Under the pieces are notes generated by a model. It was not told where the DNA came from and ran no database searches. It saw nothing but the letters and a program-made list of their open reading frames with translations. A stretch of DNA of 64,000 nucleotides from Escherichia phage phi456. The number at the start of each line of letters is the position of its first letter. Within the stretch, counting starts at the first letter, position 1. A program made the translations under genes and the position numbers. The stretch lies in sequence record OR339795; one strand, written 5' to 3'. Shown piece after piece: positions 14,429-64,000 of the stretch.

Positions 14429-14473
14429 ATGCTAATAGGCTATGTACGCGTATCAACAAATGACCAAAACACT
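14429..14473 (+). pseudogene. cin: Cin/Gin/Hin-family serine invertase remnant (first 15 codons only)
   Basis: ATG then MLIGYVRVSTNDQNT, the conserved invertase N-terminus including the catalytic Ser context; all three downstream frames lose invertase similarity. Confidence 0.6.
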
Positions 14474-14772
14474 GCTTTACTCAGACGCCACCGGAAGGAA
14501 AAATACGTATTTGCGGAGAGAATGGACAACCCGCATGGGGGGATGTTCCTCCTCCAACGAAAGAAGAGCTAATGGCTATTGCAGAAGCCAGGAAATTAAG
14601 CTTAAAGGCTCAAGCGGACTTTGAAATCGCCTGGCGATAGGATGCGGTTGATGCCGGTATCGCGACGGATGAGGAAACCGCCGCGCTTTCTGAATCGAAG
14701 AAATGCCGGATCCTGCTGATGCGCGTTGATACAGCAAAACCCGTATGGCCTGTCAATCCGCAGGATATTTAA
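14464..14772 (+). pseudogene. tail fiber assembly protein C-terminal domain fragment (U'-like) with in-frame amber
   Basis: Frame opens next to the cin remnant: ...GKIRICGENGQPAWGDVPPPTKEELMAIAEARKLSLKAQADFEIAWR, then TAG at 14638-14640, then [43 protein letters not shown]. Resembles the conserved C-terminal domain of Mu/P2/lambda tail fiber assembly proteins. Confidence 0.5.
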
Positions 14773-14986
14773 CGGGGGCGTTGTAGGTGGTGACATATTC
14801 AAGCAGTTCTGTTGGATATGTCACCGTTGCTGCATCTCGCTCTACGTTAAATGTATCCGCTCCCCAGATAACACACTCCCTCAAAAATGCCTCCACCTCT
14901 GGCGAGACTTCAACCGCATCATCAGGTCGCTCTTGTTCAGAAACATAAAAACCAACGGTCGTTGGGCTGAAATACATATTCTCCAT
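14753..14986 (-). CDS. short ORF downstream of tail fiber gene (possible truncated tail fiber assembly U)
   Basis: 77 aa, 3 bp after the S stop; lacks the conserved C-terminal chaperone domain, which is instead found inverted on the plus strand. Confidence 0.35.
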
Positions 14987-14988
14987 AT

Positions 14989-38597: not shown

Positions 38598-38613
38598 GGG
38601 GGTTTCTTACTCC

Positions 38614-39810: not shown

Positions 39811-39956
39811 CGAAAGCCATCCTTTATGCTGTATTTTTGAATTTAATTAAAAATGCTGCATAAAATAATAATGTATGCGTAGATGCTTGTACATAGCATT
39901 CTCTGCATGTTTGGTTCATTTTGCACGATTGAGAGTTACAAGGAGGGCACAAAAAA

Positions 39957-39971
39957 GCCCCGTTCAGGGGC
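39957..39971 (-). terminator. rho-independent terminator after the T5orf172 gene
   Basis: Minus strand reads GCCCCTGAACGGGGC followed by TTTTTTGTG, immediately upstream of the parA promoter region. Confidence 0.6.
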
Positions 39972-39978
39972 ATCAGTG

Positions 39979-40788
39979 TTATTTGCTAAGAGCAGCGAAT
40001 AATCGTTCGAAATCGATAGTATCTATAGCACGCGTAAGCGCCGGAAGTTCAGCCTCAAAGTACCCGTGTCGATCGTAAAAGAAGGGACCGAAGAGCGAGG
40101 CATGTTGGATTCTACTTCGCCCCAGCCCGGACACACAGTTAAGCCCATTACCGGCTAAAAGGCTAAAAAACTTCTCTGGATTATCGTGGTAAAGCTGGGA
40201 ATCAATGGTGGCGGTTAACTCTTCCATAGGGAAGCACACCCGCCCTGTATCCCAGGGATATTTAGTCCGAAGCATAAACATTGCTTTCAGCAATTCACAT
40301 TGAGCGCGGATCGCGTCCGGTTCATAGCCAGATATGGAGACATAAGCCACGTCCCTCATTCCTGCGTCATCTTTGAAAGTCACGATAGAAGTAACATCCA
40401 GCTCTTTTTCGAAAGAGCAAGCAGCATCTACTGGACGCTGAAGTAAATCATTCGACTTAATGCGCTCGAGAATCCCTCCCCACATATCATTTAGATATTC
40501 GATATGAGCCAAAACCTTATCAAGACACTCTCGTGTAAACCATTCAGTATGCCCGCCACCGGCGCTTTTCTCCCACGGCGCATTCCAGGGGAAAAAGGTT
40601 GCGTGTAAAGCCCGCTCAAGATTAACCATTGCCAAACGCGTACCACGATAGACCCGTGAAAGCGCAAAATCGGGACTCACTTGTAGCCCTTTAAACCGTG
40701 CCAATGGACCACATGAAATGCCGATTTTAAAAGTATCTCCGTTCTCTGGCACCAGAACGTAGAGGTAGTGTTGTTTCTCTTCTTGCAT
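39979..40788 (-). CDS. T5orf172 (GIY-YIG-like) domain protein, cargo gene between parA and incA iterons
   Basis: 269 aa; N-terminus YLYVLVPENGDTFKIGIS...LERALHATF...GGHTEWF matches the T5orf172 signature; C-terminal 170 aa unassigned. Confidence 0.6.
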   Translation of the reverse strand: MQEEKQHYLYVLVPENGDTFKIGISCGPLARFKGLQVSPDFALSRVYRGTRLAMVNLERALHATFFPWNAPWEKSAGGGHTEWFTRECLDKVLAHIEYLNDMWGGILERIKSNDLLQRPVDAACSFEKELDVTSIVTFKDDAGMRDVAYVSISGYEPDAIRAQCELLKAMFMLRTKYPWDTGRVCFPMEELTATIDSQLYHDNPEKFFSLLAGNGLNCVSGLGRSRIQHASLFGPFFYDRHGYFEAELPALTRAIDTIDFERLFAALSK

Positions 40789-40819
40789 ATCAATACCACT
40801 GCTTGATGAGAACCGCGCA

Positions 40820-41080
40820 AATGTTGACTATGCGCGAAGGTTAATGTGAATAGTTGACTATGCGCGATGTGACTACAGTCAAAAGTTGACTGTAGTCGAT
40901 TTAACTCCACCAAAGATCGACTATGTAAGATATTGTCGGGAGAAACGTTGACTATACGCGATGAAATGCCCCTAAAAGCCATCTCAATAGCGACTTGCAG
41001 AATATTGACGCCAGCAAAAATCCACCAGCGTCAACGAATGTCGCCTATAGTCAACTTCTCGCTATCGCATATAGTCAATA
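40820..41080. repeat. incA-like iteron cluster downstream of repA
   Basis: At least 7 copies of a GTTGACTATGCGCGA-like element in both orientations (e.g. 40823, 40853, 40885, 40947, 41042, 41067). Confidence 0.65.
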
Positions 41081-42001
41081 TTATGGATTGCGCTTATGGA
41101 TCTGGAAGCCGATTTTCCTGCCGTTTTTTATCTCTGAAAATTTAAGATATTCAATAGCTTCCAAATCTTTCATGGCTTTTCTGATAACGCTATTTTGCAC
41201 GCTAACGGATGATTTGAGATTAAGCCTCGCTCTAAGGCGCTCAATGCTGACAGGTGCCGGGTTGGCGGGTAGAGCCTCAAAGAATGTATACAGTACCTTG
41301 GCCGTCTCTTTGCGCCCTAGTTTATCCAGCATCTTCAGCTTCAGGATTCGCTTATAGTCAACATAGTAAAGTTCAGATAGCTGTTTCTGCGGCTGGATCT
41401 CGATAACATCAAGCTCGGTATTCAGGCTGCTATATGCCAACAAGTTGACGTTAATGTTATTGAGATGACCTTTTGCCGCCGGGAAGCGGAATTTGACAAC
41501 TGTCTGCTGAATGCGTGTCAGAGAGTCATCAATACTTTTACGGAACGCCTTTGAAAGGCGCTTACGTGGATAGCCGCATCGATCGGCAAACTCGGAGAAT
41601 GGCAGGGTGATTATGCCGTCATCATCAGGTGCGTAGTCAAACAACGCGGAGGTTATGCCCACCCACACCTTAAAATCAGTATCCATATCCAGGCGTGGAC
41701 CATGAATTTCAATTCCCTCATAGCCTTCCTGCTCAACAATTTTGAGGCTTGATAGTTCTTCAGTTGCGTTCGTTGTGTTTGTTGTAACTGACGATCCGCG
41801 ACGTAGCGCCACATTGGTAGATTTTAAGGTTGGCACAAACACACCTAAGCGCAACAAAGCGATGGGTTGTATAGTGCTGTTGTTATTGGGCTTCAGGCTG
41901 TGGATTTCTCCTGTATTTCCTGCAACTTCTTCAACGCTAAGGAAGCCTTTACTTTCTTCCGGCATCACGGTTTCTCCATGTGTGGCGCGGCCTGACGTCA
42001 A
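41081..42001 (-). CDS. repA: iteron-binding replication initiator RepA
   Basis: 306 aa; QPIALLRLGVFVP...GPRLDMDTDFKVWVGI...RLRARLNLKSSV resembles the P1/RepFIB RepA family; flanked by iterons on both sides. Confidence 0.8.
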   Translation of the reverse strand: MTSGRATHGETVMPEESKGFLSVEEVAGNTGEIHSLKPNNNSTIQPIALLRLGVFVPTLKSTNVALRRGSSVTTNTTNATEELSSLKIVEQEGYEGIEIHGPRLDMDTDFKVWVGITSALFDYAPDDDGIITLPFSEFADRCGYPRKRLSKAFRKSIDDSLTRIQQTVVKFRFPAAKGHLNNINVNLLAYSSLNTELDVIEIQPQKQLSELYYVDYKRILKLKMLDKLGRKETAKVLYTFFEALPANPAPVSIERLRARLNLKSSVSVQNSVIRKAMKDLEAIEYLKFSEIKNGRKIGFQIHKRNP

Positions 42002-42044
42002 TTTGGATGGCTGTTATCAACAGCTGTGAATATTCAGACTCTAA

Positions 42045-42260
42045 AATCGCTTACAGTCAATGTTTCTGTCGCGTATAGTCAACAATAAATCGCGTGCAGT
42101 CAACAATAAATCGTGCACAGTCAACATAAAATCGCGTATAGTCAATGTTGATCCCATTTCAGGCCAGTAATGACGCGGCTTACAGCGATCCGGGATCTTC
42201 TTTGGATCTTCCTAGGTTCTCTTTAGGATCTGTTTATTGGATCTATGCTGTGGATAAGTT
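42045..42260. promoter_or_regulatory. plasmid origin (oriR-like): 5 direct iterons, GATC cluster, DnaA boxes
   Basis: Iterons CGCGTATAGTCAACA-like at about 21-bp spacing (42048-42147); five GATC between 42187 and 42243; perfect DnaA box TGTGGATAA at 42249-42257 and near-box TTATCAACA at about 42014. Confidence 0.65.
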
Positions 42261-42479
42261 GAATAAACCGGCCAACAAAGCCGGTTGGAAGGAAGTCATA
42301 TTATTCTACGCTTTCGATAAGAAGACCATGTTCATAACATTTAAGCTCATCGCCTTCATACAGGAATTGGTATCCAACACCACCATCTTCATGGACATTA
42401 GGGAATAACTCATAACTCACTGAAGTGAACCGCCCCGGGAATCCTGGAGACTAAACTTCCTGAGAAAGAGGTAAACAGG

Positions 42480-42806
42480 ATGACTAAAAATACTCGTTTT
42501 TCCCCCGAAGTCCGTCAACGGGCAGTTCGTATGGTTCTGGAAAGTCAGGGCGAATATGACTCACAATGGGCGGCAATTTGTTCCATTGCTCCAAAGATTG
42601 GCTGTACGCCAGAGACTCTGCGCGTCTGGGTTCGCCAGCATGAGCGGGATACCGGGGGCGGTGATGGTGGGCTCACCACCGCTGAACGTCAGCGTCTGAA
42701 AGAGCTGGAGCGTGAAAATCGTGAACTGCGCCGCAGTAACGATATCCTTCGCCAGGCTTCCGCTTATTTTGCGAAGGCGGAGTTCGACCGCCTCTGGAAA
42801 AAATGA
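42480..42806 (+). CDS. IS629 transposase OrfA
   Basis: 108 aa [21 protein letters not shown]... HTH and leucine zipper. Confidence 0.85.
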
Positions 42807-43591
42807 TGCCACTGCTGGATAAGCTGCGTGAGCAGTACGGGGTCGGACCGGTATGCAGCGAACTGCATATTGCCCCGTCAACGTATTACCACTGTCAGCA
42901 ACAGCGACATCATCCGGATAAACGCAGTGCCCGTGCGCAGCGCGATGACTGGCTGAAGAAAGAGATACTGCGCGTATACGATGAAAATCATCAGGTGTAC
43001 GGTGTGCGTAAAGTCTGGCGTCAGTTGTTACGGGAAGGTATCAGGGTGGCCAGATGCACTGTGGCACGTCTCATGGCGGTTATGGGACTTGCCGGTGTTC
43101 TCCGGGGTAAAAAGGTCCGTACGACCATCAGCCGGAAAGCCGTTGCCGCAGGCGACCGCGTAAACCGTCAGTTCGTGGCAGAACGTCCTGACCAGCTGTG
43201 GGTAGCTGATTTTACTTACGTCAGCACATGGCAGGGCTTCGTCTATGTGGCGTTCATCATTGATGTATTTGCCGGATACATCGTGGGGTGGCGAGTCTCA
43301 TCGTCTATGGAAACGACATTCGTGCTGGATGCACTGGAGCAGGCGTTGTGGGCCCGCCGGCCGTCCGGCACAATCCACCACAGTGATAAAGGTTCTCAGT
43401 ATGTATCGCTGGCCTACACGCAGCGGCTTAAGGAAGCCGGCTTACTGGCCTCAACAGGAAGTACTGGTGACTCGTATGACAACGCGATGGCGGAGAGCAT
43501 CAATGGTCTTTACAAAGCGGAGGTAATACACCGTAAGAGTTGGAAAAACCGGACAGAAGTGGAACTGGCCACACTAACGTGGGTGGACTGG
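42803..43591 (+). pseudogene. IS629 transposase OrfB, truncated by IS2 insertion
   Basis: DDE transposase frame diverges after ...TLTWVDW at the IS2 boundary; the remaining C-terminus ([28 protein letters not shown]) is found at 44923-45030. Confidence 0.8.
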
Positions 43592-43602
43592 TGGATTTGC
43601 CC

Positions 43603-44508
43603 CTATATTTCCAGACACCTGTTATCACTTAACCCATTACTGGCCTGCTGCCGCAGATATTCCCGTGGCGAGCGATAACCCAGTGCACTATGCGGATGCC
43701 ATTCGTTATAATGCTCGAACGCCTCTGCAAGGTTCTTTGCTGCCGTTAACCCGTCTGGTTTAGGCATGATACTGATGTAGTCACGCTTTATCGTTTTCAC
43801 GAAGCTCTCTGCTATGCCGTTACTCTCTGGACTCCGCACCGCCGTGTTCTTCGGTTCAAGCCCCAACATCCGGGCAAACTGCCGTGTTTCATTAGCCCGG
43901 TAGCATGAACCATTATCCGTCAGCCACTCTACTGGAGACGCCGGAAGCTCGTTGCCGAAGCGGCGTTCCACCGCTCCCAGCATTACGTCCTGTACTGTTT
44001 CACTGTCGAAGCCGCCCGTAGTGACTGCCCAGTGCAGTGCCTCACGGTCACAGCAGTCCAGCGCGAACGTGACTCGCAGTTTTTCTCCGTTATCACAGCG
44101 GAACTCGAACCCGTCAGAGCACCATCGTTGATTGCTTTCTTTCACGGCCACTTTGCCAGTATGTGCCCGTTTCGATGGCGGTACAGCGGTTTTTCGCTCA
44201 AGCAACAGCGCATTCTGGCGCATGATCCGGTAAACACGTTTGGCATTGATCGCAGGCATACCATCAAGTTCGGCCTGTCTGCGAAGCAGCGCCCATACCC
44301 GACGATAACCATACGTGGGCAGCTCTCCGATAACATGGTGTATACGGAGAAGCACATCCGTATCATCTGAGTGACGGCTGCGGCGACCATCTTTCCAGTC
44401 ATCGGTTCGTCTGAGAATTACGTGCAACTGCGCACGCGACACCCGGAGACAACGGCTGACTAAGCTTACTCCCCATCCCCGGGCAATAAGGGCGCGTGCG
44501 CTATCCAC
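43603..44508 (-). CDS. insD: IS2 transposase InsD (OrfB)
   Basis: 301-aa DDE transposase recognised as IS2 OrfB. Confidence 0.9.
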
Positions 44509-44876
44509 TTTTTTGCACGCCCGTATTCAACGGCTTCTTTAAGGAGTTCATTTTCCATCGTTTTTTTGCCGAGCAGGCGCTGGAGTTCTTTAATCTGCTT
44601 CATGGCAGCAGCAAGTTCAGAGGCAGGAACGACCTGCTCTCCTGCGGCCACAGCAGTAAGACTTCCCTCCTGGTATTGCTTGCGCCAGAGAAATAACTGG
44701 CTGGCTGCCACACCGTGTTGCCGGGCAACAAGGGAGACCGTCATTCCCGGTTCAAAACTCTGCTGAACAATAGCGATCTTTTCCTGTGTAGTACGCCGTC
44801 TGCGTTTCTCCGGTCCTAAGACATCAATCATCTGCTCTCCAATGACTAGTCTAAAAACTAGTATTAAGACTATCAC
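44466..44876 (-). CDS. insC: IS2 InsC (OrfA)
   Basis: 136 aa [24 protein letters not shown]... Confidence 0.9.
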
Positions 44877-45071
44877 TTATTTAAGTGATATTGGTTGTCT
44901 GGAGATTCAGGGGGCCAGTCTAACTGGTATAACAATCGACGATTGCTGGAAAGGCTGGGCCATATTCCTCCGGCAGAAGCAGAAAAAGCTTATTATGCTT
45001 CCATCGGAAATACTGATCTGGCAGCCTGAGTTCACAGATAAAACACTCTCCAGGAAACCCGGGGCGGTTCA

Positions 45072-45254
45072 AACTGCAGTTGCCATGTTTTACGGCAGTG
45101 AGAGCAGAGATAGCGCTGATGTCCGGCAGTGCTTTTGCCGTTACGCACCACCCCGTCAGTAGCTGAACAGGAGGGACAGCTGATAGAAACAGAAGCCACT
45201 GGAGCACCTCAAAAACACCATCATACACTAAATCAGTAAGTTGGCAGCATCACC
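45072..45254 (-). mobile_element. IS1 left-end fragment (about 183 bp including the inverted repeat)
   Basis: Sequence identical in kind to the insA-proximal end of the full IS1 copies, ending ...GTTGGCAGCATCACC; truncated by IS629. Confidence 0.7.
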
Positions 45255-45462
45255 CAGGTGCTGGTGAGAATGAGTGCAAGGACGGCTGAAGAATATTTTT
45301 TCATACCAACACCTTCTGTAGGTTAAAAAGAGAGGAGCTTTTCCGGAGTTATATTAATAATTCATTCATCAGAGAAAACTGTTTTTTTGTTACGGCAATA
45401 ATAATGAGACAATTCCTGGTAAGCCCGGTGCCGTTCTACGGTTGCACCGGGAGGGCTGGAAC

Positions 45463-45777
45463 TCAGTGCGGAGATTTTTTACCATCCTGGCGATATAAAT
45501 GATCATGTGCTGTTTTGCGATCCCTGTATATGCCCATTTCTTTTTCCGTCTGTATTGCAGAACTGCGTAATAATCTGAAGGAGAACTCTTCCTGGCTGGT
45601 TGCTCTCTGTGATTTCATTTTTGCACGTTTCAGGCAGTGCTGTATCCGTCTCTGGATACAGATCCGATCATCTTCCTGCAGGTAGTTCAGCAGCAATTCC
45701 TGCCAGCGTGCAGCGGCTCTGCGCCATAATCCCCGCTGTTTGAGCTCTTCAGCTTTTTTATCAGTAATCATATTCAC
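45463..45777 (-). CDS. PerC/Pch-family transcriptional regulator-like protein
   Basis: 104 aa; KKAEELKQRGLWRRAAARWQELL matches the PerC-family N-terminal signature as recalled. Confidence 0.55.
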   Translation of the reverse strand: MNMITDKKAEELKQRGLWRRAAARWQELLLNYLQEDDRICIQRRIQHCLKRAKMKSQRATSQEEFSFRLLRSSAIQTEKEMGIYRDRKTAHDHLYRQDGKKSPH

Positions 45778-45794
45778 CTCTGCTCTGGTCGGTC

Positions 45795-46595
45795 ATGCTT
45801 TCTTCCCGGTATGTTATAGTTATTAAGATACTTTTGTCCCTGTTCTGTTCCGGAGTGAACATGATTTTTGTCTGTTCTGTTGTACTGGCTGACAAGGCAT
45901 TCACCCTGCAGTTTGCCGGGAAAATGCTGTCCCTTTCTGCAGGAGATGTGCTTCTGATTGATGATACTGATCGTGAGGATTTTCAGCCTCATGCTGCGCA
46001 TATCACTGAGGTGCGGCTGGATGAAAATATCATCCGCAGATATCTGGAGAGTTGTGGCGGCAACCGGGAGGCCGACAACACGGTTTCTTCTGGTTTCATC
46101 AGAGTGGCCTTTGCTCATCCTGCGTTGTTGCGTGACGTTATGCATCATCTGAATTCGGGAGGATTTGTTCATCCCGGATTTTCCGAGCAGATGTTTTTTT
46201 CCTGCATTGCTGTCTTTGCATCAAAAAAAGGCTTTCTTCCTTTGTTGCTGGGCGGAATGCTTTCTGTGGCCGGGAGAGTGAGGCATATCATCTGTACTGA
46301 CTTTTCACGCCAGTGGAAGCTGCGGGATGTCAGCAGTCGTTTGTATATGAGTGAAAGTCAGCTGAAAAAGAAACTGAAGGAAGAAGGATGTTCGTTCACC
46401 GGAGTGCTTCTGGATGTGAGAATGGGCTATGCACGCCGTCTGTTACAGGCCCGTCTGCCGGTCAACAGGGTGGCCGCGCAGTGTGGTTATGTAAGCACAT
46501 CTTATTTTATCTGCGTGTTCAGGGAATGTTTTGGCGTCACGCCTCACCGGATGCTGGCGCTTCAGGAGCACGGGCAGCATAAAAGTGAATGCTGA
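45795..46595 (+). CDS. AraC/XylS-family transcriptional regulator
   Basis: C-terminal dual HTH (...RLLQARLPVNRVAAQCGYVSTSYFICVFRECFGVTPHRM); alternative start at Met 45861; divergent from the PerC-like gene. Confidence 0.75.
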   Translation: MLSSRYVIVIKILLSLFCSGVNMIFVCSVVLADKAFTLQFAGKMLSLSAGDVLLIDDTDREDFQPHAAHITEVRLDENIIRRYLESCGGNREADNTVSSGFIRVAFAHPALLRDVMHHLNSGGFVHPGFSEQMFFSCIAVFASKKGFLPLLLGGMLSVAGRVRHIICTDFSRQWKLRDVSSRLYMSESQLKKKLKEEGCSFTGVLLDVRMGYARRLLQARLPVNRVAAQCGYVSTSYFICVFRECFGVTPHRMLALQEHGQHKSEC

Positions 46596-46754
46596 GTTTG
46601 AATTATTCTGAAGAACGGCGGGCATTTTATGGAAACGGCACATTTCCGTGTCTCTGTGGTCATTCCCGATTGCTGTTGACGCATCGCCACTCACCGGAAA
46701 TGTGCCGGAATATTTTAATCGTTCTTCACCGTCTGTGAAGGTCCTGTGCTTACA

Positions 46755-46950
46755 TTACTGAGCGGAAAATGACCTCAATTTCCTCCTGTGTAGCCTGAAT
46801 CGGGTTTGTCAGACCACATGCATCCTTCAGGGCATTAGCGGCCAGAACAGGGATATCCTCTTCTCTGACGTTCAGGGCTTTCAGACCTGTCGGGATATTC
46901 ACTTTTCCGGCCAGTTCCCTGATTGCAGATATACTGTCAGCGCCAGTGAT
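46755..46950 (-). pseudogene. C-terminal fragment of an iron-containing alcohol dehydrogenase-like gene
   Basis: Minus-strand translation ...[45 protein letters not shown] then stop; N-terminal part is cut by the IS end at 46951. Confidence 0.3.
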
Positions 46951-48420
<1,470 letters not shown>

Positions 48421-48677
48421 GCGTTGACAGCGGGTTCCTGAGTCCGGTGAAGCGCCGGTTACTGGAAAATGTTGTGTACGTCATAACAGAAACGGAGAGA
48501 AAAACGGCGATGCAAATCAGGCGGAGAAGGGTGTATCAGCGGTTACTGAAGGTTGACCCGCTGAAGTGCATCCTGTGCGGAGGTCAGATGCGGTTTACGG
48601 GGCTGAAGCGGGGCTACCGTCTGGCAGAGCTGGTCATGATGCATGAGCCACTGGCACGACAGCGGGTATACAGCTGA
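48421..48677 (+). pseudogene. possible transposase C-terminal fragment (Cys-rich)
   Basis: C-terminal part of ORF 48324..48677, ...PLKCILCGGQMRFTG...; family not assignable with confidence. Confidence 0.2.
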
Positions 48678-48773
48678 GAGCCGCAGAGGGGAAGTTGCGT
48701 CCATTTTTTGAGGAATGGAGCAAAAAATCATCACAGATATAAAAAATCAATCAATGAAAGCCATTTAATTGCC

Positions 48774-53240
<4,467 letters not shown>

Positions 53241-53737
53241 ACTGTTTTTTCTTTAGTGATGCATTTTTTATCAACCATACAAGCACATTATTTCATTGAT
53301 ACCAATCACATCAGGATGAATGTTTTTTCTCAATAGAAATAAGTGTCTTTATTCCTTACTAATTTATTCTGGTTATTCCTCTTATCCAGACGTCTCGTGA
53401 TACTCCCTGTATTTATTATAGAGTATATATATGTACTGCGTTTAAATCATGAAGACGACAACCTGTTTTACATAAATTATTCCTAAGTATTTTTCCAGAG
53501 AAGACCTAGGTATAATGATGTGCACTGTCTGGTTTTCTTACAACTGACTTAGCGATCTGCATATCCGTGATAACGCCTGAATAAATAGGACGAGAGAACT
53601 CTTAACCAAATAATCTAACACTTTTAATCGACAGGAATTAAAAACCCGGGGAGGTTAAAAAAACACAAAAAAATGGTTGTTTATTCAACTCTGGTTACGT
53701 ACCATGAGGACTGCATCCACAATGCACCGGCAATTAA

Positions 53738-54505
53738 GGTAATGACTCCAACTTATTGATAGTGTTTTATGTTCAGATAATGCCCGATGACTTTGTCATG
53801 CAGCTCCACCGATTTTGAGAACGACAGCGACTTCCGTCCCAGCCGTGCCAGGTGCTGCCTCAGATTCAGGTTATGCCGCTCAATTCGCTGCGTATATCGC
53901 TTGCTGATTACGTGCAGCTTTCCCTTCAGGCGGGATTCATACAGCGGCCAGCCATCCGTCATCCATATCACCACGTCAAAGGGTGACAGCAGGCTCATAA
54001 GACGCCCCAGCGTCGCCATAGTGCGTTCACCGAATACGTGCGCAACAACCGTCTTCCGGAGACTGTCATACGCGTAAAACAGCCAGCGCTGGCGCGATTT
54101 AGCCCCGACGTATCCCCACTGTTCGTCCATTTCCGCGCAGACGATGACGTCACTGCCCGGCTGTATGCGCGAGGTTACCGACTGCGGCCTGAGTTTTTTA
54201 AATAGCGGAAAATCGTGTTGAGGCCAACGCCCATAATGCGGGCTGTTGCCCGGCATCCAACGCCATTCATGGCCATATCAATGATTTTCTGGTGCGTACC
54301 GGGTTGAGAAGCGGTGTAAGTGAACTGCAGTTGCCATGTTTTACGGCAGTGAGAGCAGAGATAGCGCTGATGTCCGGCAGTGCTTTTGCCGTTACGCACC
54401 ACCCCGTCAGTAGCTGAACAGGAGGGAGAGCTGATAGAAACAGAAGCCACTGGAGCACCTCAAAAACACCATCATACACTAAATCAGTAAGTTGGCAGCA
54501 TCACC
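53738..54505 (-). mobile_element. IS1 (768 bp), copy B
   Basis: Same orientation as copy A; insB 53753..54256, insA 54175..54450. Confidence 0.9.
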
Positions 54506-54839
54506 GATCATCCTTAGACTCAGGGGCAAAGATTCTGTCTCAGTAAATCAGGCTCTTACCGACAAATTCCTGAGTTTACCGTCAGAACTCAGAAGATCAC
54601 TGACATGGGACAGAGGAATGGAACTGGCCAGACATCTAGAATTTACTGTCAGCACTGGCGTTAAAGTTTACTTCTGCGATCCTCAGAGTCCTTGGCAGCG
54701 GGGAACAAATGAGAATACAAATGGGCTAATTCGGCAGTACTTTCCTAAAAAGACATGTCTTGCCCAATATACTCAACATGAACTCGTCATTGTGGAAAGG
54801 CCGACATCCATAGCGCTGGCTGCATCTACCACGGTGTAA
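54506..54839 (+). pseudogene. IS30-family transposase C-terminal fragment
   Basis: ...VKVYFCDPQSPWQRGTNENTNGLIRQYFPKKT, matching the IS30 transposase C-terminal motif as recalled. Confidence 0.5.
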
Positions 54840-54977
54840 TTCTGGTCAACGACCAGTTGAGCGGATTCGCGTTTAAACTCTGCGCTGAAATTTCTTTTTT
54901 TCATTATGGCACCTGTGTTGTTCTGAGGTGAGCATATCACCTCTGTTCAGGTGGCCAAATTCAGTAAACCACTTCAG
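54840..54977 (-). mobile_element. IS911-like left-end fragment (inverted repeat plus first 21 codons of orfA)
   Basis: Minus strand: TGAAGTGGTTTACTGAATTTGGCCACCTGAACAG... then [21 protein letters not shown]. Confidence 0.55.
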
Positions 54978-55022
54978 AGGGAAACGTTCAAAAGCAACCG
55001 CCGGGAAAATGAAGGCTGAAGG

Positions 55023-55790
55023 GGTGATGCTGCCAACTTACTGATTTAGTGTATGATGGTGTTTTTGAGGTGCTCCAGTGGCTTCTGTTTCTATCAGCTG
55101 TCCCTCCTGTTCAGCTACTGACGGGGTGGTGCGTAACGGCAAAAGCACCGCCGGACATCAGCGCTATCTCTGCTCTCACTGCCGTAAAACATGGCAACTG
55201 CAGTTCACTTACACCGCTTCTCAACCCGGTACGCACCAGAAAATCATTGATATGGCCATGAATGGCGTTGGATGCCGGGCAACAGCCCGCATTATGGGCG
55301 TTGGCCTCAACACGATTTTACGTCACTTAAAAAACTCAGGCCGCAGTCGGTAACCTCGCGCATACAGCCGGGCAGTGACGTCATCGTCTGCGCGGAAATG
55401 GACGAACAGTGGGGATACGTCGGGGCTAAATCGCGCCAGCGCTGGCTGTTTTACGCGTATGACAGGCTCCGGAAGACGGTTGTTGCGCACGTATTCGGTG
55501 AACGCACTATGGCGACGCTGGGGCGTCTTATGAGCCTGCTGTCACCCTTTGACGTGGTGATATGGATGACGGATGGCTGGCCGCTGTATGAATCCCGCCT
55601 GAAGGGAAAGCTGCACGTAATCAGCAAGCGATATACGCAGCGAATTGAGCGGCATAACCTGAATCTGAGGCAGCACCTGGCACGGCTGGGACGGAAGTCG
55701 CTGTCGTTCTCAAAATCGGTGGAGCTGCATGACAAAGTCATCGGGCATTATCTGAACATAAAACACTATCAATAAGTTGGAGTCATTACC
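55023..55790 (+). mobile_element. IS1 (768 bp), copy C, inverted relative to copies A and B
   Basis: GGTGATGCTGCCAACTTACTGAT...GGAGTCATTACC; insA 55078..55353, insB 55272..55775. Confidence 0.9.
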
Positions 55791-55791
55791 G

Positions 55792-56067
55792 GCTGAAGGG
55801 CAGAAAAAAGGTTATCCGGACATGAGTCTCGATAAAGCATGCGGTATTTATCACGGCATGCGAATTGAGCTTAAAGAACCAAATGGTAAAGCCCCGACGA
55901 AAGAGCAGATCGCCTGGATGCGCAGGCTTAGAGAGGAAGGTTACTACGTCGTTCTTGCGTATGGTGCAGAACAAGCGATAACCGCCATCCTGGAATACAT
56001 AAGCCTTAAAAAGGGTGAGGCTATTGAGCATGTATTGAACGGCGATAAGTGGTTGTATGCTGCTTAA
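55792..56067 (+). pseudogene. VRR-NUC-domain nuclease-like protein, 5' end disrupted by IS1
   Basis: ...KKGYPDMSLDKACGIYHGMRIELKEPNGKAPTKEQIAWMRRLREEGYYVVLAYGAEQAITAILEY fits the VRR-NUC pattern; the ORF's first codons lie within the IS1 terminus. Confidence 0.45.
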
Positions 56068-56263
56068 AATAATAAATTAATTAGTGCATATGTGCTCTTT
56101 GATATAGCGCACATTAACATCGGGAGAATAATCGTGTCATTCAAGGCTAATTATGAATCGCTGGCATCGATCATGCCGCGTAATGAACAGGAAGCAGATG
56201 CTGTAGTGGACCCGGTAATCGCTGAAATGAATGCTCGCCTGGAGGCTGAATTTGCAGCTGAGA

Positions 56264-56893
56264 ATGAACATACCACCCAGGGCGACTAGGACTGTTTTTT
56301 GTGTCGGTAGCGGTCCGTCACTCACTCGTGAGGACTGTGCTGCTATAGAAAAAACTGGCTGTTCAATCATCGCGGTTAACAATTCCTGGCAGATGTTCGA
56401 TGACATTTATGCCTTATACGCCGGTGATTTGTCATGGTGGAAGCAATACGGATCCACCATACCGGGAGGGAGATTCCGCAAAGTGACAGCCAACCTGGCG
56501 GCGGCGAAATCATTTTCGTTGGAGTACAGGCGATATTGTGGACCGGCGGAAGGGGTAAATAGCGGCGCGCAGGCTATCAGTCTGGCTGCTGAATCAGGGG
56601 CTGAAGTAGTGGTATTAGTCGGCTATGACTGTTCTCTGCAAAACGGCCTTCATTGGCATGGCGCGCACCCTCAAGCCCTACGGAATCCAACGCAGGTGTC
56701 TATTTCAAAATGGCAACAGCAGTTCCTGGATACCCGCAAAAAACACGCAGATTTACATATTTTGAATGCAAGTAGGAGCAGTGCAATTCAATGTTTCCCA
56801 AGAATAAATTTAGAGGCAGTGATCGCGTTATTATCGTCGGCAGTGGCCCAAGCGCCGCAAACTTTGTTGCGCCGCGCGGAGTGCCGATTATAG
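56264..56893 (+). CDS. GSGPS-motif Rossmann-like protein, paralog 1 (MptE/Maf-like fold suspected)
   Basis: VFCVGSGPSLTREDCAAIEKTGCSIIAVNNSW...; likely start at Met 56264; 3' end overlaps paralog 2 by 103 bp. Confidence 0.4.
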   Translation: MNIPPRATRTVFCVGSGPSLTREDCAAIEKTGCSIIAVNNSWQMFDDIYALYAGDLSWWKQYGSTIPGGRFRKVTANLAAAKSFSLEYRRYCGPAEGVNSGAQAISLAAESGAEVVVLVGYDCSLQNGLHWHGAHPQALRNPTQVSISKWQQQFLDTRKKHADLHILNASRSSAIQCFPRINLEAVIALLSSAVAQAPQTLLRRAECRL

Positions 56894-57417
56894 CGGTCAA
56901 TGGGGCCATCGACTGGCTGAACCGCGCTTCTTATTTTTTCACACTTGATCCATCGCCAGACAATATGCGGCGCGTTGGTCGTGGCCGCCGTCGCCGTGGT
57001 GTTTGTTATTGCATGGCACTACCCGATGTTAAAGAACGTGAAGTCAGAGACGGCGTTCTGTGCTTCCGTCGTGTGGCTGAACGTGGCATGGAGCCAAAAA
57101 ATACGAATTCTCCCGAGTGGTGGGCGTGGCGCTGGTCCGCACATTTCGGACTTTGCGAAGATGAGAATGAAATTGCCAGCGGCAATAGTGCATATGGCGC
57201 TCTGAACCTGGCTTTCCATATCGGATTCAAACATGTCGCCCTGGTGGGCGTTGACGCTACACAAGAACCACGCGTTCACTCCGGCGGCACGCCAAAAAAT
57301 CTAAGTCACCTGCCTTTGTTATTCCAGTCTGCGCGTGAACGGATTGACGTTGTTTCATGCGGGAAAATGGGAGGTATTCCGCAGATGACTCTTAAAGAAT
57401 GGCTGAAGAATACATGA
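56791..57417 (+). CDS. GSGPS-motif Rossmann-like protein, paralog 2
   Basis: [30 protein letters not shown]...; the same motif layout as paralog 1. Confidence 0.4.
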
Positions 57418-58091
57418 TGGCACCAACAATTTATCACCGTATCGACGGTACCAAATACAGGAATATCTGGGTTGTTGGTGATCTGCATGGTTGCTACACC
57501 AGACTGATGTCCGAACTCCATCGTGTGGATTTTGACCCGGCGCAGGATTTACTGATATCGGTCGGCGACCTTATCGATCGCGGTACTGAAAATGTCGAAT
57601 GTCTGGAACTATTGCAGATGCCCTGGTTCAGGGCAGTAATGGGGAACCATGAGCGGTTGATGCTCGATGCGTTAAGTCCTGATGGCAACGTGAATAACTG
57701 GCTAATGAATGGCGGACAATGGTTCTTCATGCTGGACACTGATCAGGAAATATTAGCCAGGGCGCTGGTGGAGTTGGTAAGACGACTGCCCTATATCATT
57801 GAGTTGAACACCGGGCAAGAAACTATCGTTATAGCCCATGCCGACTATCCGGATAATGAATATCAATTCGGTAAGGAGGTGCCGCTTTTCAACGTTGTCT
57901 GGGCGCGCGAGCGTATCAGTGATTCGATGGATGATATTGGTGGCGAAATTTCGGGCGCAGATCGTTTTATCTTTGGTCACACTCCGGTGAAAAGCCCGAA
58001 GACATTCTGGAATCAGCATTATATCGACACTGGTGCCGTATTTTGCGGAAACCTGACATTGATGAAAGTGAAAGGTGATGGTGCAGCATGA
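57399..58091 (+). CDS. PPP-family Ser/Thr protein phosphatase (lambda-phosphatase/PrpA-like)
   Basis: Motifs GDLHG, GDLIDRG, GNHE present in order. Confidence 0.8.
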
Positions 58092-58741
58092 AGATTGCTT
58101 TAGTTCTTCGCTCTGGTGGCGACTATAACGCTTCCGATGTGCAGTGGCTGGTTAATCAACTGCCAAAAGGCTATGAAATTATTTGCCTGACAGACCTGAA
58201 GCGTTTACATGTACCTGGCGTCAAAGTTATCCCATTGATCAACCAGTGGCAAAAGTGCCGTGGCTGGTGGGCGAAAATCGAGTTGTTCCGACCGGATATA
58301 ACCGATGATCTGTTCTATCTGGATTTGGACACGGTTATTGCCGGTGATATACGCCCAATCCTTGAGAATCCACCAACCAGCTTCACCATGCTTAGGGATT
58401 TTTACCATCCACAATATCGTGGTAGCGGTGCCCTGCGGATACCAAATAGTGTAAAAGCGCATATCTGGAGTTCATTCTGGCAAGATCCGGAAGGTTGGAT
58501 TTCTCGTTGTGTCACTACTGAGTGCTGGGGTGATCAGGGGTTCTTACGGAAGGTTATGGGCGATGATACACCAGCATTTCAGGATCTGTATCCAGGATGG
58601 TTTGTAAGTTACAAGGCCGATGTTGTGGAACCTGGTTCAAAATATGCGAGCGCGCGTTACTCCAGGGGGAATGGGGCATTACCAAAGGACTGCCGAATAA
58701 TTTTTTTCCACGGCAAACCGCGACCTCGCGAAGTGTCATAG
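58088..58741 (+). CDS. hypothetical protein with DXD motif (possible nucleotide-sugar transferase)
   Basis: 217 aa; [12 protein letters not shown]; translationally coupled to the phosphatase gene. Confidence 0.3.
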
Positions 58742-58790
58742 GATTGGCTTCCCCTTACCAGCTCGTTTTTTGAGCAAGAATCAGAATAAT

Positions 58791-58856
58791 ATTGCTCTAA
58801 TAATTCCATGTTTTTAAAACGCGATGTACACTCATCACGTTTTTTATTAGAGCAAT
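58791..58856. promoter_or_regulatory. pair of inverted C1 operator-like sites
   Basis: ATTGCTCTAATAATTCC (58791-58807) and inverted TTATTAGAGCAAT (58844-58856), flanking a putative promoter for the downstream operon. Confidence 0.5.
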
Positions 58857-58870
58857 CCATAAGGTGCACT

Positions 58871-59089
58871 ATGTGGCCATTCCGACGGAAATATCACTAC
58901 TGGCTGATCGCCTTTGTTACGCCGACCGGCGGTATCAGGCATGTCATTACCAGGTATCGCAACAAGAGACTCACCTTAGCCAGAATTTTACAGGCTGCCA
59001 TAGGTGAGGGACTGGATACAAATTGCGTAGTCCTTCCACCTTCATACTTAGGAAAAATGACCGAAGCACAAGCTAATACGGAACTTTGA
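58871..59089 (+). CDS. small basic protein, first gene of the C1-operator-associated operon
   Basis: 72 aa from Met 58871 (RBS AAGGTG); stop 1 nt before the next ATG. Confidence 0.3.
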   Translation: MWPFRRKYHYWLIAFVTPTGGIRHVITRYRNKRLTLARILQAAIGEGLDTNCVVLPPSYLGKMTEAQANTEL

Positions 59090-59090
59090 A

Positions 59091-60353
59091 ATGAGCACTT
59101 CAGCACAAAACCAATCAATCGAAAATGTATCTATCCCTGACGTCCTGAATGCCGGTATCCCGGCCATTATCCAGAACATCCGGGCCGCGCAACGCCGCGT
59201 TAGTTGTGATGACCTCACAGCGCGTTTTTTTGATAATGCGGTTCAGTCAGCGGAGATGCTTCACGCACAGCTTATTGATGTTTATAACGCAGAAGCTGAT
59301 AGCCATAACTCCCTGGTAGATGCAGCTGAAAATATGCAGTTGGATCTTGGTCTGAAGGGTAAAGAAATTGAAGAGCTTCAGCTGCAAATTGAACATTTGA
59401 AACGCCAGCAACAGGACGCGATCGACGATGCGACGCATGACGCCAACCAGCGTGCTGATAATGCCGAACGTATAAGCATTGAGCTGGAAACAAAACTCAA
59501 TGAAATGACCGCGATGGTTGAACTGCGGAACTCACAGATTTCAACGCTAAAATCTCAATATAAAGAGATCATGAAACTTGATCCTTTTAACCTTGAGAAA
59601 CGCTATAACAAAGCTAAAAGCGAGCGACAGGAACTGCGTAAGCAGGTCGCCGACCTTAACCAACAGTTCAAAAAAACTATTAAAGATGCAAGCGAAGCGC
59701 GCGTGGCATTTGCTAATAAAAAAGCAGAGGTTACCGCGCTGGTTAATGAGAATGCCAAATTTGCGACGCTCAAGAAGGAAATGTATGGCATTACTGAGCG
59801 CCGTTTCCCTGCAAGCAAACTTCATCCGACGTTAGGGCAAATCTCCTTCTTCCCGCGCCTCCTGGCTTATGGGATCTCATCGCCTAAAGAGTTCAATAAC
59901 GAGCGTCCTTATATCGTTTCTAAGCTGGACTTTGCTTATCAGTTCTGCTGCGACATGGGCTATGCCATTGATATCCGAATCAACGAATGGTTGATGCCAA
60001 ACTTCCAGCCGTTGGCCATTTTCCGCGAGTTCCAGCCGGAAGGTTGGGTAGAGTTCTTCCATGAATTGATCTGTAAAGAGATGGAAAGCCGCCGCCCGGA
60101 ATTGGTCCGTCGAGTTGAGTGGGCGCAAGAGGTTATGTTGGCAGATGCAGAGCTGCCGTTCGAACCGGAATTCATTGATGATCTGGCAACTAAAGGGTTG
60201 CATACCCTGTTTGATGTGGTTACCCGCCGTCATGAGCAGTTGGTTGTCGAATTGGGTTTAGAGGAAACAGCGGCAAGAAGACTTCTCGATGTTTGCTATG
60301 CACGTAGCGATGCATGGGAAAAAGAGAACGGCGGCACTATTTACGTCCGCTGA
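59091..60353 (+). CDS. hypothetical protein, N-terminal coiled coil plus C-terminal globular domain
   Basis: 420 aa; residues about 40-240 heptad-rich (ELQLQIEHLKRQQQDAIDD...). Confidence 0.4.
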   Translation: MSTSAQNQSIENVSIPDVLNAGIPAIIQNIRAAQRRVSCDDLTARFFDNAVQSAEMLHAQLIDVYNAEADSHNSLVDAAENMQLDLGLKGKEIEELQLQIEHLKRQQQDAIDDATHDANQRADNAERISIELETKLNEMTAMVELRNSQISTLKSQYKEIMKLDPFNLEKRYNKAKSERQELRKQVADLNQQFKKTIKDASEARVAFANKKAEVTALVNENAKFATLKKEMYGITERRFPASKLHPTLGQISFFPRLLAYGISSPKEFNNERPYIVSKLDFAYQFCCDMGYAIDIRINEWLMPNFQPLAIFREFQPEGWVEFFHELICKEMESRRPELVRRVEWAQEVMLADAELPFEPEFIDDLATKGLHTLFDVVTRRHEQLVVELGLEETAARRLLDVCYARSDAWEKENGGTIYVR

Positions 60354-60425
60354 TAGTTACAGTGTCACTTTTAATGCTGGTGGAGTGCGCCCACCAGCAT
60401 TTTTTTCGTCCAATGAGGAGGGCAT

Positions 60426-60932
60426 TTGAGTATTTTCAATAAACACGCACACCAGGAACGTCCGTACATCGTCATAGTAGATATTGATGGAACGATATCA
60501 GAGGCAACGGAAGACAGGCTGCATTTACTTCCACCACCTGGCAAAGGTGCATTAACAGAGCACTGGAACGAGTTTAACCTTGCCTGTGACACTGATGCTC
60601 CCATCACTCCAGTTATTGATATGGTGCGCCAGTTGTCCAGCATTTACACGCTCTGGTTTGTAACCGGGCGCTGTGAGATAGCCAGGGATAAAACACGAGC
60701 TTGGTTGCGTAAGCACGTAACAAACGGGGCTGAGCCTTTGCTATCTATGCGTCCTGCCACCGATGACAGAAATGACGGCCCAGCAAAGATTGATCTCCTT
60801 AAGAAAATTGGTATAAGCAAAATTGCGTTCGCGCTGGAAGATAAGATTGAAGTGGCGCATGTTTTCAGGAGGCACGGCGTGCTTACGTTAATGGTCAGGG
60901 AGTATGAAAATGCGCTTCTTCATCAACAATAA
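60426..60932 (+). CDS. HAD-superfamily phosphatase-like protein
   Basis: 168 aa; motif I VIVDIDGT (DxDGT), later FVTGR and K...D elements. Confidence 0.5.
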   Translation: MSIFNKHAHQERPYIVIVDIDGTISEATEDRLHLLPPPGKGALTEHWNEFNLACDTDAPITPVIDMVRQLSSIYTLWFVTGRCEIARDKTRAWLRKHVTNGAEPLLSMRPATDDRNDGPAKIDLLKKIGISKIAFALEDKIEVAHVFRRHGVLTLMVREYENALLHQQ

Positions 60933-60947
60933 TTGCTCTAATAAACC
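60931..60947 (+). promoter_or_regulatory. C1 operator-like site
   Basis: AATTGCTCTAATAAACC, overlapping the stop of the HAD-like gene and upstream of the small peptide ORF. Confidence 0.5.
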
Positions 60948-61030
60948 ATGATTTTTAAAAAAGAGAAAGTGAAAATAAAAACATGCCGCAAGGCGCGGCA
61001 TGTATCCAATCAATCACAGGAGCTGAAAAT

Positions 61031-61117
61031 ATGAACACGGCATTCAAAATCATTATGGCCGCGATCTATTTCTGGCTGTTCTCTATCACTTTTGGCGGCA
61101 TCGTCGCGCATGGGTAA
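61031..61117 (+). CDS. 28-aa hydrophobic peptide (candidate small membrane toxin or leader peptide)
   Basis: MNTAFKIIMAAIYFWLFSITFGGIVAHG; strong RBS AGGAG 9 nt upstream; structured leader CATGCCGCAAGGCGCGGCATG; not in the ORF track (under 60 aa). Confidence 0.35.
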   Translation: MNTAFKIIMAAIYFWLFSITFGGIVAHG

Positions 61118-61196
61118 GGGGAGTATATTAGCCATTTGAAACCCCACGGTCTCTTGCGGGTTTAATTAAGAACCCGCAAGAAAAACACGAATTGGG

Positions 61197-64000
61197 CTAT
61201 ATTTTTCCGCCTACGCCTTTAAACTTCTCAATAAACGAGACGATTTTCTGGAAAACTGCCTGTTTTTTCGTTTTATATTGCGGATTCAACGGACTAAGTT
61301 TTGGTAATGTTTCGTTTAATTCTGTGCCATTTTCTGTGGCATATTCGCGTTTTAAAGACGTGCGAATATAGCGTTTTGCTGCATCTTCATTGAGATTTTC
61401 TTCTTTTATCAATGCTTCTGCTTCACGTTGCTGTTCGCGTTGAGCAAACGTAAAGAATGCGTCAATGATGCTGGCTTTGTCCGGTAAATCATCCAGGTTC
61501 GTTTGCTGAATAAAATCGACCACCAGGCCCTCTTTAGCACGGTTCCCTAAGCTTGAACGAATTAAGCGTTTAACCTCTTCGATCATTTCGCCCTTGCCTT
61601 TATTTTGTCTGTTGTGTTCGAAAATCAGTCCAAGGATATAATCCAGGTTTATTTCCTGAGACTTCAGCAAATCGACCTCAAAAACTACGTCATCCCAGTC
61701 AGTGGTTGATTTCTCTTTTTTCTCAGCTTCTTTCTCACGGCGCTGCCAGTCGCGAATATCGTTATAGGCAGAACGATAATCCTGAATCTTGCGATCAGCA
61801 GGGAGACGAATTGTTTGCAATTCAGCGAGCTTTTCATCATCCACATAATGTTCTGCTTTGAATTTTTCTACTGCAACAGGATCGCTAAGATCGATTTGTT
61901 GCAGGGCTTTCAGCGTGGCAAATTCATCATAGTTTTGCAGGATGTTCTCGGCACGCAGGTATTCACCAAACAGTTTAACGAAGTCTTTCTTCTCTTTTTC
62001 ACTTTCAATACTGGCAGGGTCAGGGAACCGTTGTTCCAGTTCTGAAACTACTGCCATAAAGCCGCGCTTAGCTTCACCAGTGGCAGCATCAGTAAAGCCT
62101 TCCATATACTCTGCATAACTCTTTTCTAAAACCACATTTTTGGTGTTTTTGTCACCAAACAGCGTTATGGCAGCAATAGTTGAGCGTTCCAGATCCCGGA
62201 AAGTGACGATATTACCGAAGGTTTTAGTTGCATCATAAATACGGTTGGTGCGGGAAAATGCCTGCATCAAGCCGTGAAAACGCAGGTTTTTATCGACGAA
62301 TAGCGTGTTCAATGTTGGAGCATCGAAGCCAGTTAAAAACATCCCCACGACAATTAACAGATCGATATCCTGATTTTTAACCCGTTGGGCTAAATCGCGA
62401 TAGTAGTTCTGAAAACCGTTACCGTCGGTGCTGAAGTTAGTTTTAAAATAGCTGTTATACTCACGAATTGCAGCGTCAAGAAACTCTTTAGCACTGCTGT
62501 CCATTGCGCTGGTATCAAAAGTTTCATCGGAAATTTCACCAATGGCATTTTGTTCTTCATTGGCAGCAAAGGAGAAGATTGTCGCAACACGCAGCGGTTT
62601 ATAGGTAGCCGATTTATTAGCTGCTTCCTCTTGTAACCGTTTAAACGCCGCGTAATAGGCTTTTGCAGCATCCACGCTGCTCACTGCCAACATAGCATTA
62701 AAACCTTTTGAGCCAGGGAAGGTGCGGTGGGTTTTCTGGCGGAAATTATTCAGAATATATTGCGTGATTTCCTGTATACGCATGGGATGAAGAAACGCCT
62801 GCTGATTTTCAGCCGCACTTAGTTTTTTCTCGTCAGTTTCTGTCTCTAAAGACTTAAACTGTGGCCGCACATCGTTGTAGTCCACCTTGAATTTGAGCAC
62901 TTTTTCATCACGAATCGCATCGGTAATTACATACGAATGCAATTCACGACCAAATACGCTGGCGGTCGTTTCTGAGCCTAAGGCATTTTCCGGGAAAATA
63001 GGGGTGCCGGTAAAACCAAACTGATAATAGCGTTTGAATTTCTTCTTCAGGTTTTTCTGCGCTTCTCCAAACTGGCTGCGGTGACATTCATCAAATATAA
63101 ACACCACTTGCTGATTGTATACAGGCAGGTCGCTTTCTACTTTCATCAGGTTATTGAGTTTCTGAATAGTAGTGACGATAATTTTGTTATCCTCCTTATC
63201 CAGATTTCGTTTAAGGCCTGCGGTATTTTCCGAGCCGTTGACGCTGTCTGGCGAAAAACGCTGATATTCCTTCATGGTCTGGTAATCGAGGTCTTTCCTG
63301 TCGACCACAAAGAAGACTTTATCAATAAAGTCCAGCTCTGTTGCCAGACGCGCGGCTTTAAAGCTGGTGAGGGTTTTACCAGAACCGGTAGTGTGCCAGA
63401 TATACCCACCGCTTTCCGGTTTTGACCAGTTCTTCGCTGTAAAGGAACTCTTAATTTTCCACAGAATGCGCTCGGTGGCGGCAATCTGGTACGGTCGCAT
63501 CACCAGTAGCGTCTGACTACTGTCAAAAACGCTGTAGTTCACCAGAACATTCAGCAGAGTATGTTTCTGGAAAAAGGTAGCGGTAAAGTCTTTGAGGTCT
63601 TTAATCAGCGTGTTGTCTGATTTCGCCCAATTCATGGTGAAGTCAAAACTGTTTTTATCGCGCTTTGTCGTGTTGGCAAAATAACGGGTATCGGTGCCGT
63701 TAGAAATGACAAACAGTTGCAGATACTTAAACAGGGAATTTTCGCTGTTAAAACTCTCTTTACTGTAACGATGTATCTGGTTGAAAGCCTCACGAATCGC
63801 CACCCCGCGTTTTTTTAGTTCGATTTGCACCAGCGGTAAACCATTAACCAGGATCGTGACGTCATAACGGTTAGCATGAGAACCCGTCTGTTCAAACTGC
63901 TGGATAATCTGCACCTTATTGCGCATGAGATTCTTTTTATCTATCAAATAGATGTTCTCAAGTCGCCCGTCGTCAAAAATAAAGTCGCAGATATAGTCGA
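61197..64000 (-). CDS. hsdR: type I restriction enzyme R subunit HsdR (N-terminus beyond window end)
   Basis: Frame open to 64000; N-terminal nuclease-type motif [19 protein letters not shown]; helicase motifs [24 protein letters not shown]. Confidence 0.85.

Follow-up and report, generated by a model that had tools for sequence, protein, structure and literature searches.

Evidence for a type IC hsdR gene at the pap–phd/doc cassette site of a P1-family plasmid in the record of Escherichia phage phi456

Background

EcoR124I and EcoR124II are the type IC restriction–modification (R-M) systems of plasmid R124, and structures are available for HsdR (PDB 2W00) and for the holoenzyme (7BST). Here we describe a related locus at the end of a 64,000-nt stretch of Escherichia phage phi456 (record OR339795), hereafter the window, in which positions are counted from the first letter; the visible part of the locus is an hsdR gene. 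Type IC hsd loci are reportedly flanked by P1 DNA, as is said to have been described by Tyndall, Lehnherr, Sandmeier, Kulik and Bickle in 1997 (Mol Microbiol 23:729).

The EcoDXXI and EcoR124 hsd loci have the same flanks as the locus described here, with post-pap DNA at the hsdR side and the end of humD, phd and doc at the hsdM side. According to the P1 record AF234172, the 220 bp after pap are 96–98% identical to the DNA downstream of EcoDXXI hsd and of R124/3 hsdR, and the segment that begins at the end of humD and takes in phd and doc shows 98% identity to the DNA upstream of EcoDXXI hsd. In EcoDXXI and EcoR124, the P1-flanked fragment is carried on a conjugative plasmid (for EcoR124, the IncFIV replicon R124), whereas the cassette in the window lies within the extended P1 backbone of a P1-derived plasmid. 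P1 itself follows the same design, combining Dar antirestriction functions with a resident R-M system (EcoP1I, res/mod). In the P1-like plasmid pSvP1, a type I R-M and methyltransferase region replaces pmg genes, and rearrangements mediated by insertion sequences (IS) as well as the loss of res/mod have been described (Venturini et al. 2019, PMC6906374). pSvP1 is a separate plasmid with other cargo, and its likeness to the window is one of description. The gene family, the mechanism, the position of the cassette in P1 and its co-occurrence with Dar are thus already known, being either documented or directly readable from public records.

A type IC hsdR gene at the window edge

We conclude with high confidence that the window ends in the 3′ nine-tenths of a type IC hsdR gene, inserted at the known variable pap–phd/doc cassette site of a P1-family plasmid. 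The gene is as follows:

61197–64000, minus strand: hsdR, restriction/motor subunit (open frame and match to EcoR124I; codons 106–1038 visible)

According to the list of open reading frames (ORFs) and the translation, the stop codon occupies 61197–61199, and the frame runs uninterrupted through 933 codons before leaving the window at 63998. These 933 codons contain neither a stop nor a frameshift, and the length of the open frame is well past chance expectation. The gene is partial because the window edge cuts its N-terminal side: the missing part corresponds to the N-terminal ~105 residues, past 64000, while the C-terminus lies inside the window.

A phmmer search against all PDB chains aligned residues 1–933 to residues 106–1038 of EcoR124I HsdR (2W00, 1038 aa) with an E-value of 0 and 2042 bits. 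Counting from the alignment, we found 15 mismatches in 933 residues (98.4% identity). Pfam domains appeared in the expected order (HSDR_N, ResIII/SWI2_SNF2, T1R_D3-like and EcoR124_C), as in EcoR124I. The catalytic motifs were likewise shared: the nuclease residues D151 and E165-x-K167 (EcoR124I numbering) were present, as were all the motor motifs GSGKT (Walker A), DECH, TGTP and QAFSRTNR, and nothing in the visible protein departs from the established EcoR124I mechanism. With a GC content of 0.432 against 0.474, the hsdR stretch is slightly richer in AT than the remainder of the window.

Similarity to the archetype EcoR124I, together with the architecture of nuclease, SF2 motor, helical and EcoR124-type C-terminal domains, shows that the visible gene is the hsdR of a type IC (EcoR124I-family) R-M system. 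A preliminary description of this stretch, made from the sequence alone, had reported an hsdR of a type I system here that was partial at the window edge. Both points are borne out, the gene being incomplete from the window edge alone; the minus strand can now be added, and the subtype can be read from the EcoR124I match and the EcoR124_C domain.

The cassette site between pap and phd-doc

The region between the last backbone gene and hsdR contains the following features:

60426–60932, plus strand: pap, P1 phosphatase/kinase homologue (94.5% to P1 Pap), the last backbone gene before the hsd cassette
60933–61121, plus strand: P1-homologous DNA past pap (alignment and P1 annotation)
60933–60949, within the P1-homologous DNA: C1 operator OpmgT/Op88, ATTGCTCTAATAAACCA (P1 annotation)
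61003–60981, minus strand: hairpin with T-run, candidate hsdR terminator (terminator scan)
61032–61118: small hydrophobic ORF, named "membrane protein" in SJ46
61122–61196: cassette boundary, 75 bp of hsd-cassette DNA ahead of the hsdR stop (four-way alignment and blast end point)

pap and hsdR are convergent. In an alignment of the window, P1, pHFQ1 and pEC21Z063, identity to P1 ran through "CATGGGTAAGGGG" (~61121), and none was found beyond this point. The 3′ end of hsdR therefore adjoins P1 DNA past pap that includes Op88, which is the arrangement of a P1-flanked type IC cassette. The PpmgT promoter region, which drives pmgT in P1, is kept in 60933–61121 and now points convergently at the hsdR 3′ end. 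At the pap–phd site, P1 carries pmgT-pmgU-pmgV-upfMNO-hot-lxr-humD, with pmgT next after pap. From the notes in the P1 record and the alignment, it follows that the hsd cassette and the P1 segment from pmgT to humD are alternative fillings of one site.

The candidate terminator at 61003–60981 came from a scan in which the number of hairpins, this one included, was no better than in shuffled sequences. A perfect inverted repeat of 10 bp, CTTGCGGGTT/AACCCGCAAG, also lies in the boundary stretch, at ~61164–61191; as an hsdR terminator this repeat was rejected, since a T-run is absent on both strands.

hsdS and hsdM are predicted just beyond the window

The last 3.1 kb of the window are 99.9% identical to pHFQ1, in which hsdR (1038 aa), hsdS (412 aa) and hsdM (518 aa) lie one after another on one strand and phd-doc comes next in divergent orientation. 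The order hsdR-hsdS-hsdM-phd-doc was also found in pEC21Z063-100K, pDETEC37, MS14386 plasmid 2 and contig RQTX01000035 (L014), so that hsdR-S-M is complete in each of the five closest relatives whose pap–hsdR junction is intact. Relatives L011–L014 were found by exact-protein look-up with PmgS; the same kind of look-up with Pap gave no matches. In PLSDB, the RefSeq E. coli genomes and phages, 80% or more of window positions 40000–64000 or 52800–57000 was covered by none of the records. L014 differs from window positions 55791–64000 by 6 mismatches in 8210 bp, and in pHFQ1, pDETEC37 and L014 the HsdR protein agrees with that of the window at 931–932 of 933 residues. L014 coordinates transposed to the window give these predicted positions:

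~64313: predicted hsdR start
~64435–65673: predicted hsdS
~65670–67226: predicted hsdM
~67409–68010: predicted phd-doc

hsdM and hsdS thus very probably lie just beyond 64000, as the preliminary description had presumed and as every close relative examined with an intact junction suggests. Judging from the 99.9%-identical relatives, the remaining 105 hsdR codons, hsdS and hsdM would occupy about 64001–67226, with phd/doc after them.

The relatives also indicate what kind of system to expect. Their HsdM aligns with the EcoR124 M protein from end to end and is near-identical to it. Their 412-aa HsdS, which is identical at 412 of 412 residues among L014, pEC17CM13_2, pDETEC37 and MS14386 plasmid 2, has the EcoR124-like conserved N-terminal, central and C-terminal regions and three TAEL (LTAE/TAEL) repeats, the element that determines spacer length in this family. 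Both of its target-recognition domains differ from those of EcoR124I, to which they are unrelated, and a different recognition sequence is therefore expected.

Several observations weigh against a complete locus. hsdS, hsdM and hsdR codons 1–105 lie outside the window, where we infer their presence and do not observe it. In pEC17CM13_2, hsdR lacks its 3′ end, having been cut by IS26 (it is annotated as a pseudogene), while hsdM and hsdS are kept. Homology of L011 and L013 to the window ends at 60418, and in these two neither pap nor hsdR follows pmgS. These three relatives share the cargo island of the window described below, and IS26 damaged their hsd locus. Some plasmids hold hsdR alone (H86, and H87 likewise without hsdS or hsdM). 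With IS1, IS26 and IS3 abundant in the lineage, hsdR might accordingly be an orphan, with no restriction activity because the locus is broken past the window by an IS in the 5′ end or by loss of hsdS or hsdM. We consider this unlikely, given that the 933 visible codons are unbroken with every motif intact and that hsdR, hsdS and hsdM are all complete in the five close relatives named above.

P1 backbone and Dar genes of the window

We mapped the backbone by blast against the P1 genome and by tblastn with 89 P1 proteins. The backbone of the window is collinear with P1 at 94–99% identity, and it contains the following Dar genes:

618–1, minus strand: darB, codons 1–206 of 2255 (99% to P1 DarB 1–206; the rest lies before the window start)
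7311–10298, minus strand: ddrB, full length
10311–10676, minus strand: ddrA, full length
10673–12592, minus strand: darA, full length
12594–13196, minus strand: hdf, full length

The products of ddrB, ddrA, darA and hdf show 95.9–99% identity to the P1 proteins and align over their full length. Dar has six components, DarA, DarB, Ulx, DdrA, DdrB and Hdf (PMC12707154), of which DdrB, DdrA, DarA and Hdf are whole in the window and DarB is represented by residues 1–206; the position of Ulx is outside the window.

After darB the P1 order continues with prt, pro, lyz, ssb and hxr, and then ddrB-ddrA-darA-hdf. Past hdf come lydABC and then the tail and baseplate genes S (N-terminal part), R, gp16 and bplA, with pmgA, sit, pmgB, tub and pmgC, and further along icd/ant1, kilA, repL, bplB, pmgG and gp21–23, followed by a par/rep module that is not of the P1 type. 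After a break in collinearity, the backbone resumes with pmgM′ (C-terminal 93 residues), pmgN, pmgP, ppp, pmgQ, pmgR, pmgS and pap. The cluster before hsdR, which had been described as unassigned, can now be assigned to the P1 pmgN-pmgP-ppp-pmgQ-pmgR-pmgS-pap block. Apart from the pap–phd filling, the window differs from P1 in the par/rep, cin/C-segment and sim regions, and a 16-kb tail/baseplate/ban/dmt block of P1 is replaced. The Dar genes of the window are inherited P1 backbone and no specially evolved partner of hsd.

A cargo island and the probable loss of phage functions

Breaks in collinearity and Pfam searches delimited the replacement of this block:

41957–55790: IS-rich cargo island, replacing ~16 kb of P1 backbone
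42803–44508 and 47201–48370: IS3-family transposases (Pfam)
45795–46595: AraC-type regulator (Pfam)
48774–49546, 53738–54505 and 55024–55791: three IS1 copies
49743–53240: autotransporter, 1165 aa (Pfam)

Compared with P1 and vB_EcoM-673R5, the replaced backbone comprises upfA through hrdC, dmt, tRNAs, tciABC, ban, dbn, gp5/6/24/7/25/26, pmgL and the 5′ part of pmgM. The same island was found in pEC17CM13_2, CP142795 and JAHSRN010000004. Its third IS1 (55024–55791) is a simple insertion specific to the lineage and bordered by a direct duplication of 9 bp, GGCTGAAGG, and L014 and pHFQ1 are uninterrupted there. We considered this IS1 as the cause of the backbone deletion and rejected it on the same grounds, namely the simple insertion with its duplication and its absence from L014 and pHFQ1.

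A tblastn search of the window with P1 proteins gave no match for gp5, 6, 24, 7, 25, 26, pmgL, ban, dbn or dmt. The window consequently does not hold a complete P1 set of head, tail, baseplate, packaging and late-activator genes, with the positions of lpa and pacAB lying outside it. A complete sister plasmid, pEC17CM13_2 (97,281 bp), is collinear with the window at 94–99.97% over long blocks including the island, with one icd/ant segment at 83%. Across the whole of pEC17CM13_2, all of the genes just listed were absent, and so were lpa, pacA and pacB. In four relatives (L001, L005, L008 and L009), an IS1 between pdcA and c1, past phd-doc-pdcA, removes pdcB-lpa-pacAB; this shared deletion marks a widespread non-packaging P1-derived lineage that keeps hsdRSM and phd-doc.

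Dar proteins work only if they are packaged in the virion along with the DNA they protect (PMC12707154). The element is most likely a defective, plasmid-only P1 derivative whose working parts are hsd, phd-doc and the cargo. On this reading the intact Dar ORFs are relics, because genes for the tail, the baseplate and replication, and probably for packaging, have disappeared from the lineage. Dar is thus unlikely to be delivered in capsids from this element and can probably not be deployed. The evidence for defectiveness is the missing syntenic block and the sister plasmid. Against this reading, the third of the replicon that lies outside the window could be different.

The element could instead be a working P1-like phage-plasmid, whose virion-borne Dar would defeat type I systems in new hosts and whose type IC hsd would restrict competitors of the lysogen. 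The visible head and Dar genes and most of the tail genes are full length, and a full-length in-silico prophage with the same replicon type, vB_EcoM-673R5, has both Dar and hsdRSM. Many ~95-kb P1-like plasmids also combine the structural half with hsdR; two of these, NZ_MG825379 and NZ_CP139806 (~93–96 kb), were among the best matches to the Dar/structural half as well as among the hsdR matches. Nevertheless, the block from gp5 to pmgL is replaced by cargo in the window, and pEC17CM13_2 has neither that block anywhere nor lpa and pacAB, which makes a working phage-plasmid very unlikely here. Even if it were one, the combination of Dar and R-M would be the ordinary, documented design of P1.

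The preliminary description had placed hsdR and capsid-packaged anti-type-I functions together on one phage-plasmid. That the Dar genes share the window with hsdR is correct, but delivery in a capsid does not fit the replaced tail/baseplate block. The term phage-plasmid is itself doubtful for an element in which 16 kb of backbone have given way to IS-bounded cargo and whose sister plasmid also lacks lpa and pacAB.

Frequency of the hsd cassette and of its combination with Dar

We searched PLSDB, a plasmid sample biased toward clinical isolates, for the cassette. At least 80% of the 3.1-kb hsdR-end query was held by 846 plasmids, and at least 80% of the whole pap-to-doc locus by 482. The pap–hsdR junction (1041-bp query, at least 80% covered) was found in 250 plasmids and the equivalent pap–pmgT junction of P1 in 172; among PLSDB plasmids, hsd is the commoner allele than pmgT at the pap–phd site. 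The presence of Dar and type IC hsd together is clearly routine despite the sampling bias. In the phage collection, the cassette was present in one P1-like record only, the in-silico prophage vB_EcoM-673R5, and a Klebsiella phage carries an 82%-identical hsdR. Sampling, or fewer inducible phages among hsd carriers, are candidate causes of this contrast between phages and plasmids.

An offence/defence pairing on this element, which the preliminary description had found worth verifying, is nothing new: P1-flanked type IC loci are on record, pSvP1 has been described, the hsd junction outnumbers that of pmgT, and P1 pairs Dar with res/mod. We give the observation little weight as a discovery. Its main use lies in annotation, namely an hsdR gene on the minus strand, of type IC, with partners expected within 3.3 kb past the edge. 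It also carries a caution, as the sequence is that of a decayed, IS-laden P1 derivative with a porin, an autotransporter and an AraC regulator, whose phage-offence half is probably non-functional.

The same distribution bears on why the cassette is kept. hsd always adjoins phd-doc and is retained in decayed P1 derivatives without phage functions, and pEC17CM13_2 retains hsdM and hsdS though its hsdR is truncated, as would be expected if the cassette served plasmid maintenance (together with phd-doc) or epigenetic marking above phage defence. On the other hand, hundreds of plasmids keep hsdR intact at 98–99.9% identity, which speaks for selection on restriction, and type I systems are not known to be addiction modules. 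A role mainly in maintenance or marking is thus improbable.

Proposed mechanism and role

The mechanism proposed here follows what is established for EcoR124I (see the reviews PMC3874165 and PMC12707154). HsdS together with two HsdM subunits would make up a methyltransferase for marking a bipartite target, with M2S acting on hemimethylated targets. At unmethylated targets, HsdR would dock on this complex; its SF2 ATPase motor would translocate DNA with ATP, and its PD-(D/E)xK nuclease would cut at a distance. In type IC systems, HsdR loading via a cleavage-incompetent R1M2S intermediate leads to restriction alleviation that is independent of ClpXP (PMC12707154). Such a system would be predicted to guard the plasmid-bearing cell against unmodified incoming DNA.

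The accessible assays of Dar protection covered EcoK and EcoB (type IA) and EcoA (type IB). Among them, we found no report of Dar protection against type IC, alone among the enterobacterial type I families. The HsdS of the window lineage and that of vB_EcoM-673R5 are identical at 163 of 418 residues. Because the accessible Dar assays do not include type IC, hsd-IC is the majority allele and HsdS varies between lineages, P1-family elements might use type IC systems against one another, beyond the reach of their own Dar, and this rivalry might drive the diversification of HsdS; we regard this as a speculative idea with a low probability. As a second and weaker possibility, antisense transcription from PpmgT might lower restriction upon prophage induction.

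Other features of the window

Outside the hsd and Dar loci, the window departs from P1 at several places. Where P1 has IS1 and isaA/isaB, the window has a gene for an OmpC-like porin of 370 aa (5156–6268, minus strand; Porin_1, E = 3.9e-148), which is named ompC in many P1-like plasmids of ~95 kb. A porin encoded by a P1-family plasmid could change phage receptor or permeability phenotypes. At 14429–16350, the cin recombinase is down to 19 codons, and unrelated tail-fibre/assembly sequence stands in place of the invertible C-segment with its alternative tail-fibre ends Sv′ and U′. S matches P1 over residues 1–415 only. The simABC superinfection-exclusion region of P1 is absent from the window at 26505–27880, its place being taken by minus-strand ORFs at 26534–27073 (179 aa) and 27077–27598 (173 aa).

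The par/rep module (37596–42001) has amino acid identities to P1 of 43% for ParB, 58% for ParA and 42% for RepA, and a T5orf172/GIY-YIG-type gene (39979–40788) sits between parA and repA. The same module was found in vB_EcoM-673R5 and pEC17CM13_2, and MOB-suite types that of the relatives as IncFIB/IncHI1B. Finally, compared with P1 and with every relative examined, pmgQ (58088–58741, plus strand) ends early, at a stop in codon 218 of 233, and the exact 217-aa PmgQ is on record in one other contig only, the 4.8-kb Logan contig ERR1790719.

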